Notes: generated by a model from the sequence alone, not told the origin. Shown: positions 1-11,257, counted from the first letter of the stretch. The stretch: DNA of 11,257 bases from a virus (IMGVR_UViG_2734482772_000014), one strand, 5' to 3'. Translations and numbers: made by a program.

Positions 1-282
1 CTACCTTTGCCTATTGCCGCCATTTAACCGGAAGGCGTTACCGTTCGGTTGCGCTATCCCCATGCGGTGTTGCGTTTCGGTAACAGCTTTATGCAGGTCG
101 CCAAAGTCCTCAACCTTCACGGGCGGGCGCTTCACGTTCTCAAGACACGTTTCACGGCGGCGCTTTATCCATTCCCGATCATCGGCCTCGGTGCATAACA
201 GCATGACTTCCATCCATCGCGCTGCGGCGCGTCGGTACATCCCTTTTGCTTCCAGATCCTCGGCTTTACTGTCGTTTACCAT
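1..282 (-). CDS. PerC-family-like small transcriptional regulator (93 aa)
   Basis: Complete ORF: ATG at 282..280, stop TAG at 3..1. SD GGGGGAG 6 nt upstream of ATG. N-terminus MVNDSKAEDLEAKGMYRRAAARWMEV...REWIKRRRETCL matches my recollection of the PerC/Pch family pattern (A..LE.KG..RRAA.RW..V). Family call is from memory, not a search. Confidence 0.5.
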   Translation of the reverse strand: MVNDSKAEDLEAKGMYRRAAARWMEVMLLCTEADDREWIKRRRETCLENVKRPPVKVEDFGDLHKAVTETQHRMGIAQPNGNAFRLNGGNRQR

Positions 283-336
283 GTTTATCTCCCCCAGAAT
301 GGCGTTTCATCGTCGAATGGTGGGCGTTGGTCAAAA
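263..336. repeat. Copy A of a ~75-90 bp duplicated 5' leader (SD + first 8 codons MVNDSKAE + upstream CCATTC direct repeats)
   Basis: Near-identical by eye (a handful of mismatches) to 1205-1296; contains start of the PerC-like gene. Confidence 0.8.
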
Positions 337-495
337 TCATCAGGGGTATTATATGACTCCCATCCCGGCGCGGATTGTGTTGCGTGGCCTCCTGTGTGCC
401 TGTAGCCTGGCTGATTCCGGTAATACTGCGGAGTTAGGTCTACCGGCATAGCTTACCCGTGGAGAAATGAATCATCGAATTAGTTTGGTCGGGAG

Positions 496-1167
496 TTATT
501 CCACCAGCAAAAATGGCGTTGCCCGGTCTATGACGTTGATGCCAATTAACGAGCTAACATTTCGACCATCCACAATGCTATCCCGTTCAAGCAAATGCGC
601 TATTTTTTCTACTTCATACCAGTATTGAGCCATGAGGGCTTTGGTCTTTTCAACGAGTTTAGAAAGCATTAACTCCCTGTTAATTAGCTTATCTGTAGCG
701 CAGATTAAATCGAGCATGTCATTTACGTTAGCCATGTCATAGCGATGAGGTAGCGAATACTTTTTGTTGAAAATATCGTTGTTTTCGTAAAGGGCTTCGC
801 TTACTGGTCCGGCGAGGGATACAAAAGCGGCCTTTTTTGCATCGCGCTTTATGCCATCCGCATAGTAACGTATGAAAGGGATAACTTTACCATTCTGCCC
901 AACTACACCAGATTTACTATCCCGCAAACGCCCGAGATCGTGGCTGTGAATTATGCTGTGTTTAACAACGCCCAAACACTTGGCCTCATGTACATGTTTG
1001 CCAGCAACGTAACCGTATTCATCCATAACGGCGATAACCTGTACATCTAAGCGAATAAGCCATGCAGCTACTGCATGTCCCGCTTCGTGGAATGCTACAC
1101 ATCGTTTACCATCACCTATCCAGTTATAGAACATTTCCGGTTTATATATCTGGTGAATGGCTACCAT
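496..1167 (-). CDS. Standalone zinc metallopeptidase-domain protein, FtsH/M41-like (223 aa), no AAA+ module
   Basis: HExxH motif as FHEAGHAV (FtsH has HEAGHA). Downstream SLAGPVSEAL and DMANVND resemble FtsH GGRLAEEI and ASNDI segments. SD GAGGG 6 nt upstream of ATG 1167..1165, stop TAA 498..496. Visibly lower GC than flanks (not computed). Confidence 0.55.
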   Translation of the reverse strand: MVAIHQIYKPEMFYNWIGDGKRCVAFHEAGHAVAAWLIRLDVQVIAVMDEYGYVAGKHVHEAKCLGVVKHSIIHSHDLGRLRDSKSGVVGQNGKVIPFIRYYADGIKRDAKKAAFVSLAGPVSEALYENNDIFNKKYSLPHRYDMANVNDMLDLICATDKLINRELMLSKLVEKTKALMAQYWYEVEKIAHLLERDSIVDGRNVSSLIGINVIDRATPFLLVE

Positions 1168-1223
1168 TACGCGCCCTCGCTTGCTAGTGAGGCCAGAGCC
1201 TCTGCTTTACTATCGTTGACCAT
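1167..1223 (-). CDS. 18-codon upstream ORF (MVNDSKAEALASLASEGA), stop TAA overlapping ATG of the M41-like gene (TAATG)
   Basis: ATG at 1223..1221 preceded by SD GAGGGAG; first 8 codons identical to the PerC-like N-terminus. Could be a coupling leader peptide or a recombination remnant. Confidence 0.3.
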   Translation of the reverse strand: MVNDSKAEALASLASEGA

Positions 1224-1296
1224 GTTTATCTCCCTCAGAATGGTGTTTCATCGTCGAATGGTGGGCGTTGGTCGTATTCATCACGGGATGGCTGCT
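1205..1296. repeat. Copy B of the duplicated 5' leader, upstream of the M41-like gene
   Basis: Same sequence as 263-336 with a few substitutions; the duplicated start codon opens an 18-codon ORF. Confidence 0.8.
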
Positions 1297-1669
1297 GCGC
1301 ACGTCTCAGCGCGTCCGTTGCCTGTCCCCGCTGTCCTGCCTTCCCGCCGGGGCGTACCGTTCTGGCGCTGATCACACTGTCGGCTACTACCTGATACCCC
1401 TGCTGTGTACCTCCGTCCTGCCCTGTCCACTGATTGATCTGCATCGCTCCGGCAACACTGACTAAATCGCCTTTAACGTGTCCTGCCAGTGCGTCGGCCT
1501 GTTTGCCGAATGCCACCACGCCCAGCCAGAAAGTAACCTCTCCGCCCTCTGCTGTATGGCAGGGCAGTGCCACCGCTAACCGTCCCATTGCCATGCTTGT
1601 ACCGTTTGCTGTGGTACGGGTCTGGGGATCTGCCACCAGCCGCCCGTATGCTGAAATTTGTGCTGTCAT
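1235..1669 (-). CDS. ssb: Single-stranded DNA-binding protein (SSB family, 144 aa)
   Basis: OB-fold pattern aligns by eye with E. coli SSB (G.L..DP..R...NG...A; W..VV.FGK.A....L.KG; W.D..G), Gly/Gln-rich linker, and acidic C-terminal tail FDDETPF (SSB: FDDDIPF). Confidence 0.75.
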   Translation of the reverse strand: MTAQISAYGRLVADPQTRTTANGTSMAMGRLAVALPCHTAEGGEVTFWLGVVAFGKQADALAGHVKGDLVSVAGAMQINQWTGQDGGTQQGYQVVADSVISARTVRPGGKAGQRGQATDALRRAQQPSRDEYDQRPPFDDETPF

Positions 1670-2287: not shown

Positions 2288-4729
2288 TCAATCATCACTC
2301 TGCCCGCTCTCCACACCGTAAGCACGGGGCATGAACTCCTCAGCCTTCTCGTTATAGCCAACGTTGGTTTGCGCTCTGCCGTTAATGCTTCTCGTCAGGT
2401 AGCTGGCTCGGTACTCTTTTGCTGCTGATTTTATGGCGCGTGAAAACTTATTGACGGAAAGCGGTTTACCCAAACCGTGATACTCCATAAACGCCAGATA
2501 AAGATGATAAAGATACGTCCTCGGCTCTGGCTGGCCTGCCCATGTACCTCCGCCCATCATCATGCCTTTGGGTTCGTTCATGAAAAAAAGCGCCGCACAC
2601 ATATCGACAACCGGATCCGTGCCGCGTTTAACCTCTAGCGCCTCCTGCGAATCGCGCTGCTCTAGTAATAGTTCCTTTGCTTTGTTCTGGTCGGAAAAGG
2701 TGGTTAGCAGGTGGCGGATAATCACCGGGATTTCTCGCCTGATTTTTGCTGTTAAATCCGGGTCTTTGTCTGCGTCTGATACCGGGTTATTAAACGGGAA
2801 TATCACGCGGCGGCGGGCAATGCCCCCGTTTCGCTCCGTGAATGTCATCGGCTCGTTATTGGTTGCCATAACAACGGCATTTATCACGGTTGTGAACTGC
2901 TTTTCATATTTCCCATCAATCTCTACCGGATCGCCGCCCGTAATGGCTTTAATCCCCGCACCCTCTCCAACATAGCGGGTCTGGTCAGGCATAATAATCA
3001 GGCTTTTTCCTACGAACTGCGCCCGTCCCCGTGCGGTGTCCAGCGTCATCATGCTACCGCTGGCGGTGTTGTGTTCACCTGCCAGCGTGGTTGCTATGCT
3101 GCTGAATACGGATTTTCCACTGCCGCCCTCGCCAGTTATCTCAATGAATAGCTGCCAGTCGTGACGCTTCGCCAGCACCATAAACAAGGCTGCTTTGATA
3201 CGCTCGGCCTTATGATGGTCGCCAGCCGTTGCATGATTCAGCCAACTGGTAAAATTGGGGGCGCTGGTGGTAATATTTTCCCCCGGCGCTGGCGGGGTGT
3301 AGGTGATCCCATTGTGGTTCATCAGCCAGTTACCCGGCGAATGGGCGGAAAACGTCTGCGTAGCGAGGTCATAAACGCCGTTATCAAAACCAATCAAATC
3401 CCCGCTCCGCTCACCAATTACCGGTATTTGCAGCTTCATGGTTGCGACAACCGATTTAATCCCCTTTTCGGTGTAGTGGGCTTCGTGCTCGTCGAAAATT
3501 GCCACCATAACCCTTTCTAATTCACTGTCTGGTAGCTTCTCCCATACGCCAGATTCGTAGCAGTAAACAGTGCCACTATCAGGGTTAACCGCCAACATAT
3601 CCCATCGAGATGAAAGCAACCGCGCTTTCTGGCTGGCTGCCATTTGTGCAATATCTCCGACTTCGGCTTTACGGCGGGATTTACCGCCCGCAATGGCCTG
3701 TAGTTGTGGTTTCACGGCTTCCCCCTGAATCTGGTACATCGAATCGTTAAACGCAGCCGTAGCGACTTCCAGCCCGTTTTGCTGGCGGTAGTCGTCCCAG
3801 TCGGCTTTGTAGTCTGTCGGCGGCAGCGCCACCCAGCCAGCCACGGATAAGGCGGCTTTCTCTGCGGCATCTTTGCCCGTGTTCGCCTGTTCGTCCTGTT
3901 GGTGGTCGTTATCTGCGGCAATGATAATTTGCGACTGCGGGTGTTTCCGGCGCATCACTTCGGCAACGGGTAGCAGGTTGCCCGCATCAATGGCGCACAC
4001 TGTCAGCGCGTCAGGGCGCATCAGGTGGACTGATAAAGTGGTTGCCAGCCCCTCGGCAATAATCACCGCCTGCGGCTGTTCCGGTGCGTTAACGGCGTGA
4101 TATGCCCCGCGCTTTGCTGAACCTGTCAGGAGTCGCTTCTCTCCCTGCGGTGTAATGGTTTGCGCTGCTGCCACTGCGCCGGATTCGTCCACCAGCTCCA
4201 GCAATAACGAACCATCCGGCATAACCGGATAGTTAAACCCGGTCAGCCCTTTTGATTGCAGGTAATCAGATTCTCCCTGTGTGGCACTCTGGCGCATTCC
4301 GGCATACAGACGGGCAAACGTAGCCCTTCGCTGCTCTGCATCCTCTGCTGCCTGTTTCTGGCGCTCCTGCTCACGCTGCTGGCGGTCAGCTTCCAGTTGC
4401 TCTCTTCTATGGCTCGCTGCCACCGGGTCGGTTTCCGCTGCCCGGTAATCAATACCCAGCACATCAGCGGCAAGCCTTGCCGCTTCTGTGGTGTCGCAGT
4501 TGTTCACCTTCTTAATCAGGTCTAAACCGTCACCAGCGCCACACTGATTGCAGATAAAGCTACCGCGCCCGTTGTCGTCGAATCTGAAACGGTCTTTTCC
4601 ACCACATGCAGGGCATGGAGAATGGCGGCGCGATGAATCAGGCACGTCGATAGACAATCCAGCCAGCACATAAGGCCAGCGCCCGGCGGCGGCACTGGTC
4701 ACTTCGCGGATAATGTCGATATTACGCAT
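2288..4729 (-). CDS. P4 alpha-like bifunctional primase-helicase (813 aa from ATG 4729)
   Basis: Zinc ribbon CPACGG...CNQCG; Toprim signatures (IIAEG..., IIIAADND); Walker A GEGGSGKS in the C-terminal helicase region. SD AGGGGG upstream of ATG 4729..4727, placed just after the stop of the 113-aa gene (4724..4722). Confidence 0.88.
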   Translation of the reverse strand: MRNIDIIREVTSAAAGRWPYVLAGLSIDVPDSSRRHSPCPACGGKDRFRFDDNGRGSFICNQCGAGDGLDLIKKVNNCDTTEAARLAADVLGIDYRAAETDPVAASHRREQLEADRQQREQERQKQAAEDAEQRRATFARLYAGMRQSATQGESDYLQSKGLTGFNYPVMPDGSLLLELVDESGAVAAAQTITPQGEKRLLTGSAKRGAYHAVNAPEQPQAVIIAEGLATTLSVHLMRPDALTVCAIDAGNLLPVAEVMRRKHPQSQIIIAADNDHQQDEQANTGKDAAEKAALSVAGWVALPPTDYKADWDDYRQQNGLEVATAAFNDSMYQIQGEAVKPQLQAIAGGKSRRKAEVGDIAQMAASQKARLLSSRWDMLAVNPDSGTVYCYESGVWEKLPDSELERVMVAIFDEHEAHYTEKGIKSVVATMKLQIPVIGERSGDLIGFDNGVYDLATQTFSAHSPGNWLMNHNGITYTPPAPGENITTSAPNFTSWLNHATAGDHHKAERIKAALFMVLAKRHDWQLFIEITGEGGSGKSVFSSIATTLAGEHNTASGSMMTLDTARGRAQFVGKSLIIMPDQTRYVGEGAGIKAITGGDPVEIDGKYEKQFTTVINAVVMATNNEPMTFTERNGGIARRRVIFPFNNPVSDADKDPDLTAKIRREIPVIIRHLLTTFSDQNKAKELLLEQRDSQEALEVKRGTDPVVDMCAALFFMNEPKGMMMGGGTWAGQPEPRTYLYHLYLAFMEYHGLGKPLSVNKFSRAIKSAAKEYRASYLTRSINGRAQTNVGYNEKAEEFMPRAYGVESGQSDD

Positions 4730-5063
4730 GGTTGCCCCCTGCCACGGTCGCGCCCATGTCTTTAACCATGCTTTGCCATATCTCACGCCCTACGTCAGTC
4801 AATCCGTCATTAGTGACGCAACGATCAAGAATCTCGATCCCCACGGTTTCCCACTGCGGGTAGGACACTTTCATGGCTGCCAGTGTGTAGCTATCGATCA
4901 GGCTGCGAACGCCTTTTACTCCATTGACGATTTCCACACGGATTTGCTGGCCTGCCGCGTCAACCATGAAGTAATTGCCACCATTGATAGCCGTAATGTG
5001 GTTATACAGTGCCGACGCATACTTATTCGCCAGCGCATTAAGTCGGAAATTTTTAGTAATCAT
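4722..5063 (-). CDS. Hypothetical protein (113 aa)
   Basis: SD GAGGGGG upstream of ATG 5063..5061; ends 4 nt before the primase SD/ATG. No recognised motif. Confidence 0.5.
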   Translation of the reverse strand: MITKNFRLNALANKYASALYNHITAINGGNYFMVDAAGQQIRVEIVNGVKGVRSLIDSYTLAAMKVSYPQWETVGIEILDRCVTNDGLTDVGREIWQSMVKDMGATVAGGNHA

Positions 5064-6654: not shown

Positions 6655-6845
6655 GGAGTCACCGCATAAGGTTCCAATCTTAATAGTGGCGGTGACGTTA
6701 GCAGGGTTGGAACTACCGGACACAAAGGAAACCGGCCTACGCGAACGTAGCCCCACTAACGCCACCATAGATACAGTACGGGCAAGGCCGCTGATTTGAT
6801 GTGCGTGGTGATCGGACACAAAAAAAGACGCTTTCGGCGTCTGTG
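6655..6845 (-). ncRNA. Putative C4/CI-type antisense-RNA leader
   Basis: On the minus strand, two direct repeats UUUGUGUCCG(A/G)U (plus coords ~6811-6824 and ~6717-6730) are complementary to the Icd-like RBS ACACAAAGGAGG (plus 6641-6653). No protein-coding signal with an SD in this interval. Boundaries approximate. Confidence 0.3.
6819..6842 (-). terminator. Short hairpin + U7 (AGACGC-CGAAA-GCGUCU-UUUUUUU): terminator or leader structural element
   Basis: Minus-strand stem-loop followed by 7 U. The stem is only 6 bp, so it may instead be part of the antisense-RNA leader. Confidence 0.3.
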
Positions 6846-7039
6846 TCGCCCTTAGTGTGTTCGGGGTTCCAATCCCGGTTGCTGATTTTGCAGCAACGCT
6901 TGGACTATAACAGCTTTTCTCTGCTAGGTGGTCATACCAGATAAAACCGTAACCCTTTAAGAGTTTTTCCTGTGCACGGCTCACCATCTTTTTGTTGAGG
7001 GTAAGCGCCTCGCGTACTGGTAACGGAACTCCGGGCGCT

Positions 7040-8127: not shown

Positions 8128-8559
8128 TTATGCGGCGGTAAATGCGTCTGGGTAGAGGTTGAGAATGTCGGCTATTTCAGACTTACTAAGCCCCTGATAA
8201 CCCCCTGCGGCGGCGTTGCTGTTAACCAACTGGATAACTCGCATCACATCACCACGGCCCACAAATCTGTAGCGTAGGTGTGCGCCAATGCCATCGGGGT
8301 TCTTTTCGTCTATACGCTCAAGCTGAATATCAAGCCTGCGCTCTAACTCGCTGGCGTAGTTCCTTCCAGACGAAAGGCGGCAATAACGCAGAATATCGTT
8401 TTCTGTCCATCCCTCTATACCAGTACGCAGCATATAGACGCGGGCGCGGTGTTTCTTTGGGGTACGCCTAGGTACTTGTACCGGGCTGGTGGTCGGCGTA
8501 ATATCAGACGTGCGAATATCTGAGTTAGCCGCCTGTAATGGGCGGTTTTTCTTTTTCAT
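8128..8559 (-). CDS. Hypothetical basic protein (143 aa from ATG 8559), coupled to alpA
   Basis: ATG 8559..8557 overlaps the alpA stop (ATGA). Lys/Arg-rich N-terminus suggests nucleic-acid binding. Family not recognised. Confidence 0.5.
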   Translation of the reverse strand: MKKKNRPLQAANSDIRTSDITPTTSPVQVPRRTPKKHRARVYMLRTGIEGWTENDILRYCRLSSGRNYASELERRLDIQLERIDEKNPDGIGAHLRYRFVGRGDVMRVIQLVNSNAAAGGYQGLSKSEIADILNLYPDAFTAA

Positions 8560-8762
8560 CAAGCCACCTTTCCCCGACGTTCTGCCAGCCAGTTGTTAAT
8601 CTCTACCGCATCAAAGGCGGTAATCTTCTCGCCCAGCTTTACCGGACGTGGTAGTGAACCGTTTCTTACTTTACGGTCGATGGTGGATACACTAACGCCC
8701 AGTAATTCAGCCAGGCGGAAGCGTCTGATATAGCCTTTTGTAGGAATAGTGTCGGTGTTCAT
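8559..8762 (-). CDS. alpA: AlpA/Vis-family phage transcriptional regulator / excisionase-like (67 aa)
   Basis: Winged-HTH signature RLAELLGVSVSTIDRKVRNGSLPRPVKLGEKITAFDAVEINNWL typical of the AlpA family; position next to a P4-type integrase. Confidence 0.8.
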   Translation of the reverse strand: MNTDTIPTKGYIRRFRLAELLGVSVSTIDRKVRNGSLPRPVKLGEKITAFDAVEINNWLAERRGKVA

Positions 8763-8764
8763 GC

Positions 8765-8811
8765 TTCCCGTAACCTCTTAGCGATAGTTGTTGCTTCGTT
8801 ACGGGAGGAAG
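8765..8811 (-). promoter_or_regulatory. Inverted repeat spanning the alpA 5' UTR/RBS
   Basis: TTCCCGTAAC (8765-8774) and GTTACGGGAgGAA (8798-8811); on the minus strand the proximal arm covers the likely SD of alpA. Confidence 0.35.
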
Positions 8812-8828
8812 TATCTGTACATATATGA

Positions 8829-8860
8829 ACAATAAAAAGGCACAGTAATGATACTGTGCC
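8829..8860 (-). terminator. Rho-independent terminator for the 321-aa gene
   Basis: Minus strand: GGCACAGUA-UCAU-UACUGUGCC (perfect 9-bp stem) followed by UUUUUAUU; about 20 nt after the stop at 8877. Confidence 0.7.
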
Positions 8861-8876
8861 TGAATAGTTAGCTACT

Positions 8877-9842
8877 CTACCCCTTACCGTTGGCGGCAGC
8901 ACGTAAGTGTCTCAAAATCACATCTTCATTTGTGATTGCTAACGGTGGAATTTCGTCTTTATGAGCCACTATGCAATCCCGCCACTTCTCAGGGCTTATT
9001 TCTTTCTTTTTGCCACGGCATTCATCAGGATACTTTGACAAAAGATATATTGCAGATTTGAAAAGTTTTTCCCTGTTTTCAGCATGTCTCTCGGCATTAT
9101 GGTTGCTATTTTTTATTTCAGGTATTAGTTCCTGTTCTACCGCCATTTCGTATCGTTTTTTGCTCTTAGCTGCGTCAAAACTTCCATTAACCTTTGCGTC
9201 ATGAAGGTATTCTAAATCAGCCTTTGTTATATAAATGTTTTTATCTGACAGGCTACTCAGGTGAATTTGGGAACTTTGCATTTTGAATTTATATAGATCA
9301 CAATCAAATGTTGCTTCAAGTCGCACATATGGTTCTCCACATTCTTGTGAATGATAATGTCGTGTTGTTCTACCGCGTACACGCAACAATCCACATGCAA
9401 TTGATTTTCTTACAATAAAAGAGTTTTTGCCAATTTGTTCAAAAACATTTTTATTGTCGCTGTCTTCAACTGTCAGTGGTTTATGTGCATAAAATAGCTC
9501 ATAAGCACCGCTTTCAGATGCTGGGATATAAACTTCGTTGCTTGCGCTGGTAATAAGAAAAGGAAATGTAAACCTTACTTCTTCTGGGTACATAAGTAAT
9601 AAATCAGTTATAAAATTAGCATCTTTTTTGAAGTGGATGGTGGCATCAGATTCAATGAAATCAAGAAAGTCAGCATAGACATAAAAGTCTATATGTAGTC
9701 TATCTTTCCAATGCCATATATCATCAATTTCACAATTTAATAATTTTGATGCTCGCTCTATCGTGCAGTAGTCCAAAGGTGGAATACCTGATTCCTGCCA
9801 TAAATTTCTATGCACCACAGTTGTTTCATGAGAGTCGTTCAT
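8877..9842 (-). CDS. Orphan hypothetical protein (321 aa), AT-rich cargo between integrase and alpA
   Basis: SD AAGGTGA 7 nt upstream of ATG 9842..9840, stop TAG 8879..8877. Markedly AT-rich versus neighbours (by eye). No Walker A, HExxH or obvious hydrophobic TM stretch; C-terminal third is Lys/Glu-rich. Confidence 0.65.
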   Translation of the reverse strand: MNDSHETTVVHRNLWQESGIPPLDYCTIERASKLLNCEIDDIWHWKDRLHIDFYVYADFLDFIESDATIHFKKDANFITDLLLMYPEEVRFTFPFLITSASNEVYIPASESGAYELFYAHKPLTVEDSDNKNVFEQIGKNSFIVRKSIACGLLRVRGRTTRHYHSQECGEPYVRLEATFDCDLYKFKMQSSQIHLSSLSDKNIYITKADLEYLHDAKVNGSFDAAKSKKRYEMAVEQELIPEIKNSNHNAERHAENREKLFKSAIYLLSKYPDECRGKKKEISPEKWRDCIVAHKDEIPPLAITNEDVILRHLRAAANGKG

Positions 9843-9875
9843 TGCGTCACCTTTTACGCTGCGCCTTATTTTGTG

Positions 9876-9930
9876 ATTGAGCCAGGCGGTAAGGCTTCCC
9901 GCTTTTCGCCCCGTCGAGCTAGGCTCAATC
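9876..9930. repeat. Inverted repeat GATTGAGCC...GGCTCAATC in the int-cargo intergenic region
   Basis: 9-bp arms at 9876-9884 and 9922-9930 with a GC-rich ~37-bp spacer; no U-tract follows on the minus strand. Confidence 0.5.
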
Positions 9931-9937
9931 TATTCAG

Positions 9938-11197
9938 TTAGTTCGCCCTTCTGAGAGGCGTTACGTTGTAGTCTTTTCCGCTTTCCAGTGCCACCAGCAG
10001 ATCAGCCCACTGTGCCAGTGCTGCTTTACGCTCATCAAAATACTGATGGCGGTTATAAATCCCCTCTACGCCCTTAATGCGATGATTGAGGCATCGTTCC
10101 GCCACGACAGGATCAACACCCAACGCTGCTAAATGAGTACGTGCGGTGCGTCGGAAGTCGTGAATCGTGAAATTAGGCACATCCGGCATTTCGGCGCGAA
10201 CCTTAGCCAGTGCTACGGGCAAAGTGCTTTCCTGAATATGTGGGATCATTCTGTTTTGCATCTTCCTGGCTGGAAGCACCCATGCGCTATTACATGAAAA
10301 GGTGTGTAGCTCTCTCAACCATTCAACGGCTGGGGAAGGTAGAGGTATATCAATAGGGTCTCCGTTTTTGCTGCGTTCTTCCGGCAAATGCCATACCGCA
10401 CCATCTAAATCAAACTCTTCCCATCGTGCGGCGCATAACTCCATCTTACGAACGCATAGTGCCAGCAATAGCTTAAATGTCAGTTCGTTCTGGCGGCTGA
10501 ATCCTTTTGCGGTGCGCATAGCCTCGAATAGCCTGATAAGCTCATCGCGAGTTAGCCAACGGTCGCGGGAAACCTCTTTACCACCAGCATCAGATACTTC
10601 AAACGCTGAACAAGGGTTTATCTCCAGAGCGTGGCGTTTTATCCCGTAGTCAAAGATACGGCGTGTCCAGCGTAATACATCTGTTGCTATCGTTGGTGCT
10701 CCTCGGTCAACGATACCTTTCAACATGTCGTCAATGTGGCGTGGCTTAACGTCCTCTACCTTCATATGCCCAATGCAGGGGTTAATATCCTTATCAATTC
10801 TCCGGCGAAGGATATCGGGATGTTTCCATCTCGGAAGTATCTGGCGCTCGAAGTATTCGGAGGCCAGATCTGAAACACGCATGGCGTTTTTCTCAGCCTC
10901 CATTTTTGCCAGTGCTTCAGCTTTTCGTTCCTGTTTCTCTGCTGCTACGTCATAGCCAAGAGCAACTCTGGCTGACAGCTCTTTGGCTGTCTCTCTGGCC
11001 TTTGATAGTGATAGCTCGCTATACGAACCAATTAGCATGGCGCGGGACTTCCCTGCGAGTTTATAGCGGAATCTCCATGTGGGGGTTTTGTCGGCTTCAC
11101 GGTAACGTAGGTATAAACCGTTACCGTCTGCCCGCCCCTCGAATCGCTCTCCGCTCTTAATCCATGCGCGGATCTGCATGTCTGTTAGTTTTGGCAT
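9938..11197 (-). CDS. int: P4-type tyrosine integrase (419 aa from ATG 11197)
   Basis: N-terminus MPKLTD...GLYLRY...WRFRYKLAGK...LIGSY is characteristic of P4-family integrases; C-terminal HDFRRTARTHL (HxxR) and GIYNRHQYFDERK (catalytic Tyr region). The ORF stays open to the window edge (11257), but the MPKLTD start is the conserved one. Confidence 0.88.
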   Translation of the reverse strand: MPKLTDMQIRAWIKSGERFEGRADGNGLYLRYREADKTPTWRFRYKLAGKSRAMLIGSYSELSLSKARETAKELSARVALGYDVAAEKQERKAEALAKMEAEKNAMRVSDLASEYFERQILPRWKHPDILRRRIDKDINPCIGHMKVEDVKPRHIDDMLKGIVDRGAPTIATDVLRWTRRIFDYGIKRHALEINPCSAFEVSDAGGKEVSRDRWLTRDELIRLFEAMRTAKGFSRQNELTFKLLLALCVRKMELCAARWEEFDLDGAVWHLPEERSKNGDPIDIPLPSPAVEWLRELHTFSCNSAWVLPARKMQNRMIPHIQESTLPVALAKVRAEMPDVPNFTIHDFRRTARTHLAALGVDPVVAERCLNHRIKGVEGIYNRHQYFDERKAALAQWADLLVALESGKDYNVTPLRRAN

Positions 11198-11227
11198 TTT
11201 GCGAATATCCAAACTTTGAATAGGGGG

Positions 11228-11251
11228 TGTACCCAAAGCAATGTACCCAAA
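11228..11251. repeat. Direct repeats TGTACCCAAA x2 upstream of int
   Basis: Copies at 11228-11237 and 11242-11251 (14-bp period), within 50 bp of the int start. Candidate Int arm-type sites or int promoter operator. Confidence 0.4.
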
Positions 11252-11257
11252 CCTCAT

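Follow-up and report, generated by a model that had tools for sequence, protein, structure and literature searches.

A PerC-family gene next to the replication module of a predicted EcCIMP1-like phage satellite of Escherichia coli

Introduction

PerC of EPEC is an 89-aa activator of LEE1, and its gene lies on the virulence plasmid pMAR2 after perA and perB. The PchA/B/C proteins of EHEC O157:H7 belong to the same Pfam family and also activate LEE1, as anti-silencers. PchA has 104 aa, and its gene is found among the late and lysis genes of the lambda-like prophage Sp4. Pch activates LEE1 only through relief of silencing by H-NS/StpA/Hha/YdgT, and its binding to the promoter region of LEE1 has been reported both in vivo and in vitro (PMC4764244). 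The ANR family includes Aar, found in EAEC, and Rnr, found in EPEC and C. rodentium. Both proteins bind H-NS and Ler, and LEE is repressed by them (PMC5570504, PMC10148876); such direct contacts of Aar and Rnr concern AraC/XylS regulators and/or members of the H-NS family.

PerC-family genes are also carried by phage-inducible chromosomal islands (PICIs) of E. coli, such as EcCICFT073 and EcCIEDL933 (PMC6092414, PMC11773190). Fillol-Salom 2018 states that LEE is activated by some of the PerC homologues encoded on PICIs (PMC6092414). The nearest tested relative of the gene studied here is EcCIMP1_025 of the PICI EcCIMP1 in E. coli MP1 (Pick, Stadel & Raivio, ISME J 2025; PMC11773190). In C. rodentium it represses LEE1-lux in a dose-dependent manner, whereas EPEC PerC activates in the same assay; the effect was obtained with the protein over-expressed from a plasmid in a heterologous host, and Pick et al. 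proposed that EcCIMP1_025 is an ANR-like repressor (PMC11773190). The PerC-like proteins of EcCIEDL933 and EcCICFT073 are more distant, at about 40% identity to EcCIMP1_025, and had no effect on LEE1-lacZ in Porter 2005 as that work is cited in PMC11773190. EcCIMP1 itself is excised, replicated and packaged with the help of phage Kapi1, and AlpA is its master regulator (PMC11773190). De Sousa and Rocha 2023 make no mention of PerC.

Here we analyze a PerC-like gene at the edge of a window of 11,257 nt, by which we mean the whole stretch of viral DNA. The gene is already known: hundreds of genomes have it annotated, and experiments have been done on a copy with 90% identity. What this study adds is an account of the upstream region as an ssb relic, the insertion of a cassette that parts ssb from perC, the lack of a LEE association, a fixed synteny across LEE-free genera and a score gradient from PerC to ANR.

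Results

The element that carries the gene

Every substantial ORF in the window is encoded by the minus strand. The ORF map starts with the integrase, a low-GC 321-aa ORF, an AlpA-like HTH regulator and a 144-aa ORF; these are followed by an AntA-type antirepressor, an Icd-like region and several small ORFs, then by a P4-family primase and a 100-aa ORF, and finally by ssb, the gene of an HExxH protein and perC. The backbone genes used for comparison are as follows.

9938-11257, minus strand: tyrosine integrase; near-identical elements lie between yicC and dinD
8559-8762, minus strand: AlpA-like HTH regulator; the same position holds Phage_AlpA (PF05930) in relatives
2288-4786, minus strand: P4-family primase, from the RefSeq annotation of a near-identical element; N-terminal half 69% identical to that of EcCIMP1

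E. coli chromosomes carry DNA that is 98.6% identical to the window in the interval from yicC to dinD, and RefSeq annotates it in the same way. Protein identity to EcCIMP1 is 90% for PerC, 88% for orf113, 84% for Icd, 78% for orf144, 71% for AntA and 69% for the N-terminal half of the primase, but only 33% for AlpA and 29% for the integrase. Since the backbone is shared and the integrase is not, the window appears to be an EcCIMP1-like satellite with a different integration module. Judged from its sequence, it is an EcCIMP1-like PICI of E. coli: integrase, AlpA and primase stand in one orientation, the size falls within ~10-20 kb, and virion structural and lysis genes are missing.

EcCIMP1 is integrated at tRNA-Thr, whereas the near-identical elements of the window are at yicC-dinD. 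The upstream neighbors of perC also differ, being phage DNA-ejection-type genes and a second alpA-like gene in EcCIMP1, and ssb, an inserted HExxH gene and an ssb relic in the window. Downstream of perC the likeness returns: in QDFD216, a relative of the window, the next two genes (a 186-nt hypothetical gene and one of the pRiA4b ORF-3 family) share their RefSeq proteins with EcCIMP1.

The perC-like gene and its protein

1-282, minus strand: perC-like gene, a 93-aa ATG ORF of the PerC family, orthologue-like to EcCIMP1_025
288-295, minus strand: Shine-Dalgarno sequence GGGGGAGA of perC, GGAG core 6 nt before the ATG, by reading the sequence

The original prediction was that the N-terminal half of this 93-aa ORF follows the PerC/Pch pattern, with a PF06069 profile search as the check. 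The search confirmed the family assignment at 99.1 bits (E=1.8e-28; gathering threshold 22.6 bits). The match extends over protein residues 1-86 and model positions 1-86 of 90; it is thus of full length and not confined to the N-terminal half. PHROG 994 also matches at full length (E=9e-35), and RefSeq names the 99.6%-identical copy of CFS3292 a 'PerC family transcriptional regulator'. A large protein collection contains 75 homologues with 44-97% identity, whose named sources are Escherichia, Klebsiella, Enterobacter, Citrobacter, Salmonella, Kluyvera, Raoultella, Pluralibacter and Erwinia, and about 35 positions are near-invariant when homologues from many genera, with identities of 51-97%, are aligned. 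The window perC is a real, conserved gene. A plus-strand ORF of 145 aa that runs antisense to it (14-451) has no family match and was taken as spurious.

When 12 sequences, PerC and PchA among them, are aligned, the invariant residues are D4, A7, L10, E11, K13, G14, Y16, R17, R18, A19, A20, R22, W23, C46, R52 and G75. The N-terminal motif D-KA-LE-KG-YRRAA-RW is common to the window protein, EPEC PerC and PchA, and the satellite clade has a conserved C-terminal sequence of its own, HRMGIAQPNG-AFRL. The predicted structure has three confident helices in residues 5-50, which would form an N-terminal domain resembling a TPR/MIT-like hairpin, and a further helix at 61-73. No helix-turn-helix or other recognizable DNA-binding fold was found in this model, and a PDB sequence search with the family profile returned nothing meaningful (best E=0.47).

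The window protein and EcCIMP1_025, both of 93 aa, share 84 residues (90% identity, 96% similarity). Seven of the nine substitutions fall within the first 33 residues, in the N-terminal ANR-like domain. At the DNA level the comparison with the EcCIMP1 gene (L014 9535-9816) is a mosaic, with 98.2% identity over nt 1-219 and 73% over nt 220-282, which suggests a recombination breakpoint within perC, near the ssb junction. The first segment encodes the C-terminal two thirds of the protein and the second its first 21 codons.

Position between the PerC/Pch and ANR proteins

Identity of the window protein is 33% to EPEC PerC, taken from pMAR2, and 33% to PchA, taken from prophage Sp4 of O157:H7 Sakai. 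The likeness to EPEC PerC lies in the Pfam family, a similar length and the N-terminal motif; with PchA/B/C the family and the motif are shared, whereas the C-terminal half of PchA is different. The sub-motifs AAQKRA-C, IKQ-V and FR-YK of PerC and PchA are absent from the window protein. The settings differ as well, as the window gene sits on a satellite, where it follows ssb, and not on a virulence plasmid or among prophage lysis genes. For these reasons the implied closeness to the LEE activators is not supported. When EPEC perC was used as a blastn query in distant mode for pch genes, only 11 pEAF-type plasmids were matched.

We compared the Pfam profile with the ANR model NF033650 (ANR_neg_reg, NCBIfam), which has 54 positions and a curated cut-off of 32 bits.

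PchA: PF06069 149 bits; NF033650 13.6 bits
EPEC PerC: PF06069 143 bits; NF033650 18.2 bits
EcCIMP1_025: PF06069 104.5 bits; NF033650 31.1 bits
Window protein: PF06069 99.1 bits; NF033650 29.0 bits

The ANR match of the window protein involves residues 6-50 and is significant (E=7.2e-7), yet it remains below the cut-off. By this profile measure the protein has significant ANR homology without formal ANR membership. EcCIMP1_025 scores comparably on both profiles, and the ANR model is matched by 43 of 46 satellite-clade members. The score gradient and this proportion together indicate that the satellite clade is a branch of the PerC family which, in its first 50 residues, is distinctly closer to ANR than the LEE activators are. 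The predicted three-helix N-terminal domain of the window protein is a likeness to the ANR family, but the protein also has, beyond the 54-position ANR model, some 40 C-terminal residues of the PerC type, with the helix at 61-73 and the HRMGIAQPNG-AFRL sequence. The functional sign is also ANR-like, since Rnr represses LEE (PMC10148876) and EcCIMP1_025 represses LEE1. In this the tested satellite-clade member differs from EPEC PerC and Pch, which activate LEE1 (PMC11773190, PMC4764244). PchA/B/C are linked mechanistically to H-NS silencing (PMC4764244), and the window protein would share such a link.

An ssb relic and an inserted cassette upstream of perC

1235-1669, minus strand: ssb, 144 aa (PF00436, E=4e-15), which directly precedes perC in relatives
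1193-1287: direct repeat copy 2, with the end of the intact ssb, a Shine-Dalgarno sequence and a truncated perC start
1167-1223, minus strand: 18-codon fusion leader MVNDSKAEALASLASEGA and its stop, made of the first perC codons and the last 10 codons of a 57-aa gene known from CFS3292
496-1167, minus strand: inserted HExxH (HEAGH) gene, 223 aa, RefSeq 'peptidase M41 family protein'
283-390, minus strand: relic of an ssb 3' end (153-aa-type allele) in which the stop TGA has become TGG; C-terminal part of a 54-aa ORF at 285-449
252-346: direct repeat copy 1, 95 nt, with the ssb tail, the Shine-Dalgarno sequence and the first perC codons; 89% identical to 1193-1287

The 54-aa ORF ends with GHATQSAPGWESYNTPDDFDQRPPFDDETPFWGR, and the intact 153-aa SSB of a related locus (L005) ends with GHATQSALGWELYNTPDDFDQRPPFDDEDPF. 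The last 31 residues of the ORF match the C-terminus of the 153-aa ssb allele that lies next to perC in relatives, the DNA having been aligned by eye; Pfam, PADLOC and PHROGs gave no family match for the ORF. In repeat copy 2 the intact ssb ends with …DQRPPFDDETPF and a stop. The fusion leader joins the perC start MVNDSKAE to ALASLASEGA, and its TAA stop and the HExxH start codon overlap (TAATG). The same ALASLASEGA ends the 57-aa protein of CFS3292, whose gene (L002 13167-13340) is translationally coupled to the HExxH gene by a TAATG overlap, the usual arrangement of the pair. Since only the last 10 codons of this partner are left in the window, the HExxH gene is the orphan of a two-gene cassette. 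It has a GC content of 43-48%, compared with 55-58% around it. Pfam gives sub-threshold Peptidase_M41 and M50 matches at the HExxH site, and no PADLOC or PHROG match was obtained for the HExxH protein or its 57-aa partner. An RPN5_C match at residues 147-169 of the HExxH protein is above the Pfam threshold and looks spurious.

In relatives the ssb stop, the Shine-Dalgarno sequence and the ATG form a junction with an 11-nt spacer before perC. The 95-nt repeat and the relic ssb tail, read as traces in the DNA, indicate that ssb-11 nt-perC is the ancestral order, and that the lower-GC HExxH cassette later recombined between the two genes with duplication of the junction. As a result of the HExxH gene insertion, perC is now about 950 nt from ssb.

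This history bears on two signals that had been noted upstream of perC.

297-302 and 315-320, minus strand: CCATTC pair, Pro-Phe codons of the acidic tail of the relic SSB (RPPFDDETPF)
348-353, minus strand: single perfect TATAAT at 66 nt before the perC ATG, perhaps a weak internal -10 element

The CCATTC repeats had been put forward as an upstream feature. They are codons of the relic SSB, and both recur at 1238-1243 and 1256-1261 in the direct repeat. We rejected the pair as a regulator binding site, because the copies are in-frame Pro-Phe codons that are found again in the intact ssb. The window contains CCATTC 12 times against 6.9 expected, and a further copy is on the plus strand within the perC ORF (169-174). 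The perfect minus-strand TATAAT does exist, although at 348-353 and not at 342-347 as first given. It corresponds to the ssb codons TAT AAC of the intact allele, here TAT AAT. It is the only copy on both strands of the 11,257 nt, where shuffles give 6.4 +/- 2.5, and 198 of 200 shuffles contain at least one; thus, its occurrence is not above chance. No acceptable -35 hexamer and no TG extension accompany it, and the promoter scan did not call it. The lone -10 is a putative element that may add some perC transcription. The minus-strand genes are tightly spaced. As no terminator is predicted on the minus strand within 1-2400, read-through along the operon offers the simpler model.

The near-identical elements QDFD216, E41 and 50EVAW have a 150-bp deletion (window positions 203-352), by which the first 26 codons of perC and the Shine-Dalgarno sequence are lost. 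The ends of the deletion are ATGACT(T/C)CC microhomologies, and the ssb relic tail and most of the TATAAT are removed too. RefSeq still names the 70-aa remainder a PerC family regulator.

LEE co-occurrence and host range

Co-occurrence with LEE was measured by inclusion-exclusion over 5,426 complete E. coli genomes, with ler+escN from Sakai as the LEE marker. The window perC allele was found in 337 genomes (a copy covering at least 80% of the gene in 332), ler+escN in 697 and the concatenated query in 983. Allele and LEE are together in 51 genomes, O111:H8 strains among them, compared with 43 expected (odds ratio 1.23, p=0.21). Hence no LEE enrichment was found among the 337 carriers, and 286 of them (85%) have no LEE. 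With homologues also present in LEE-free genera, a LEE-linked context is not supported for the gene.

For a sampling that was not anchored on perC, we searched for AntA with one genome per species and scanned the loci with the PerC HMM. PerC was present in about 10 of about 20 AntA-anchored satellite-like loci, in 7 of them directly after ssb, and the hosts include Shimwellia, Enterobacter, Buttiauxella, Rahnella and Atlantibacter. The synteny int-AlpA-AntA-primase-(SSB or ProQ)-PerC is seen in E. coli, Enterobacter and Salmonella contigs. In the Salmonella lineage (L010-L013, 7520-8276) the ssb slot is occupied by a ProQ/FinO-domain gene of 164 aa that overlaps the perC start by 14 nt.

The idea that perC is a universal core gene was rejected, as about half of the AntA-anchored satellite loci are without it. 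Its absence from these satellites and the N-terminal deletion in three elements mean that it is not essential for the satellite. Nor is the suggested status of cargo supported, for the gene has a fixed slot that closes the replication module, with ssb or proQ directly before it. perC is a frequent, position-fixed and dispensable module of this satellite family. Since there is no LEE association and the same slot is occupied in LEE-free genera, its normal role cannot be LEE control.

Discussion

We suggest that positions 1-282 probably encode a functional small regulator of the PerC/ANR superfamily that belongs to an EcCIMP1-like PICI (int - alpA - antA - icd - primase - ssb - perC), is expressed as part of an operon, acts through contacts with H-NS-family or AraC-type proteins, and represses LEE1 where LEE1 is present. 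Upon induction of a helper phage, AlpA would switch on the long minus-strand operon, of which perC would be the last cistron. The protein may then act by contacts with H-NS, StpA, Ler and/or AraC-type activators, as ANR proteins do, which would be a protein-protein mode rather than classical DNA-binding activation. Direct DNA contact is also possible, since Pch is reported to bind the LEE1 promoter region (PMC4764244). In a LEE-positive host the net effect would be LEE1 repression, as measured for EcCIMP1_025. In the usual LEE-negative host the targets may be H-NS-silenced genes of the host, the satellite or the helper phage.

The original prediction of cross-talk with host virulence is therefore plausible in part. 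A LEE effect has been measured for the 90%-identical EcCIMP1_025, but its direction is repression and not activation (PMC11773190), so that an effect of the window protein on LEE would probably have the reversed sign. It is very unlikely that the protein is an activator of the PerC/Pch type that turns on ler (LEE1) and raises virulence in a LEE-positive host. The Pfam family and the invariant N-terminal motif that it shares with PerC and PchA, the LEE activation reported for some PICI homologues (PMC6092414) and the 51 E. coli genomes, including O111:H8, that have both allele and LEE would fit such an activator. Against it are the identity of only 33% to either protein, the repression of LEE1 by EcCIMP1_025 where EPEC PerC activates (PMC11773190), the 85% of carriers without LEE and the homologues that are common in LEE-free genera. 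A Pch-like, DNA-associated anti-silencer that serves the satellite, displacing H-NS from AT-rich satellite or helper promoters, such as those of the low-GC accessory genes, to activate them upon induction with only an incidental effect on LEE, is easier to accept but still unlikely. Pch does lower H-NS binding at LEE1 and depends fully on H-NS/StpA/Hha/YdgT silencing (PMC4764244), perC stands at the border of the replication module and variable accessory genes and keeps this position in non-pathogenic genera, and the window has low-GC segments (43% at 401-800; 35-42% at 8801-10000). However, the sole functional result for the clade is repression (PMC11773190), the predicted model is without a recognizable DNA-binding fold, many related satellites do without perC, and the literature surveyed reports no satellite phenotype for a perC deletion.

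Two further readings concern expression and decay. perC could be transcribed alone from a promoter in the ssb relic (the TATAAT at 348-353), as a lysogenic-conversion gene of the uninduced state, and we regard this as possible but doubtful. The element is the sole perfect TATAAT in 11.3 kb, is 66 nt from the ATG and arose by a synonymous-type change from TATAAC of the intact ssb allele, and the HExxH insertion has opened a gap of about 950 nt between ssb and perC. Yet it has neither a -35 nor a TG extension, was not called by the scan and is a single copy where chance would give more; the stretch from the HExxH gene to perC has no predicted terminator. Moreover, the 11 nt that part ssb and perC in the relatives are too few to hold a promoter, which makes transcription as an operon the ancestral state. 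That perC is a decaying passenger with no current function is hardly credible. The 150-bp deletion of the first 26 codons and the Shine-Dalgarno sequence in QDFD216, E41 and 50EVAW and the variable presence of the gene among related satellites (also PMC11773190) speak for decay, but the ORF is intact with a good Shine-Dalgarno sequence, 332 E. coli genomes have a copy covering at least 80% of it, about 35 positions are near-invariant across genera and the 90%-identical homologue is active when expressed (PMC11773190). We thus retain the reading of an operon-expressed satellite regulator.

For the origin of the family we put forward a tentative hypothesis, which we hold to be possible without calling it likely. 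PerC-like proteins may originally have been a regulatory module with a fixed place in the phage satellites of enterobacteria, expressed together with the replication genes and retuning H-NS-family silencing during helper-phage induction, with the LEE activators PerC/Pch and the ANR anti-activators as later offshoots. If so, the window protein would be near the ancestral type, since it scores between PerC/Pch and ANR on both profiles.

The naming of these proteins calls for caution. A label such as 'PerC family transcriptional activator' invites the reading that the gene activates virulence, while the nearest tested protein does the opposite. In a LEE-positive strain, this satellite would more likely damp attaching-effacing virulence than boost it.

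Some observations on the rest of the element can be added. The primase matches that of EcCIMP1 (L014 18539-21295) over the N-terminal 367 residues only (69%). Comparison of primases within the satellite family indicates a domain swap, in which the C-terminal helicase part is either of the D5_N/DUF5906 type or of the DUF927 type. Rfam models identify RNA elements in two places, and these are listed below with the 321-aa ORF.

6685-6772, minus strand: complete C4 antisense RNA, 82 bits
6821-6897, minus strand: isrK, 75 bits
6858-6910, minus strand: c4 a1/b1 target motif
8877-9842, minus strand: 321-aa ORF between integrase and alpA, in the lowest-GC part (35-42%)
9863-9929, minus strand: int-alpA RNA motif RF02996, 60.6 bits, between the integrase and the 321-aa ORF

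The cluster of C4, isrK and target motif (6685-6910) is just upstream of the Icd-like coding region, an arrangement that resembles the immI module of the P1/P7 type (c4-icd-ant). The 321-aa ORF has a weak PADLOC match (PDC-S31, E=0.002), and the equivalent slot differs among relatives; it looks like a variable accessory or defence position.
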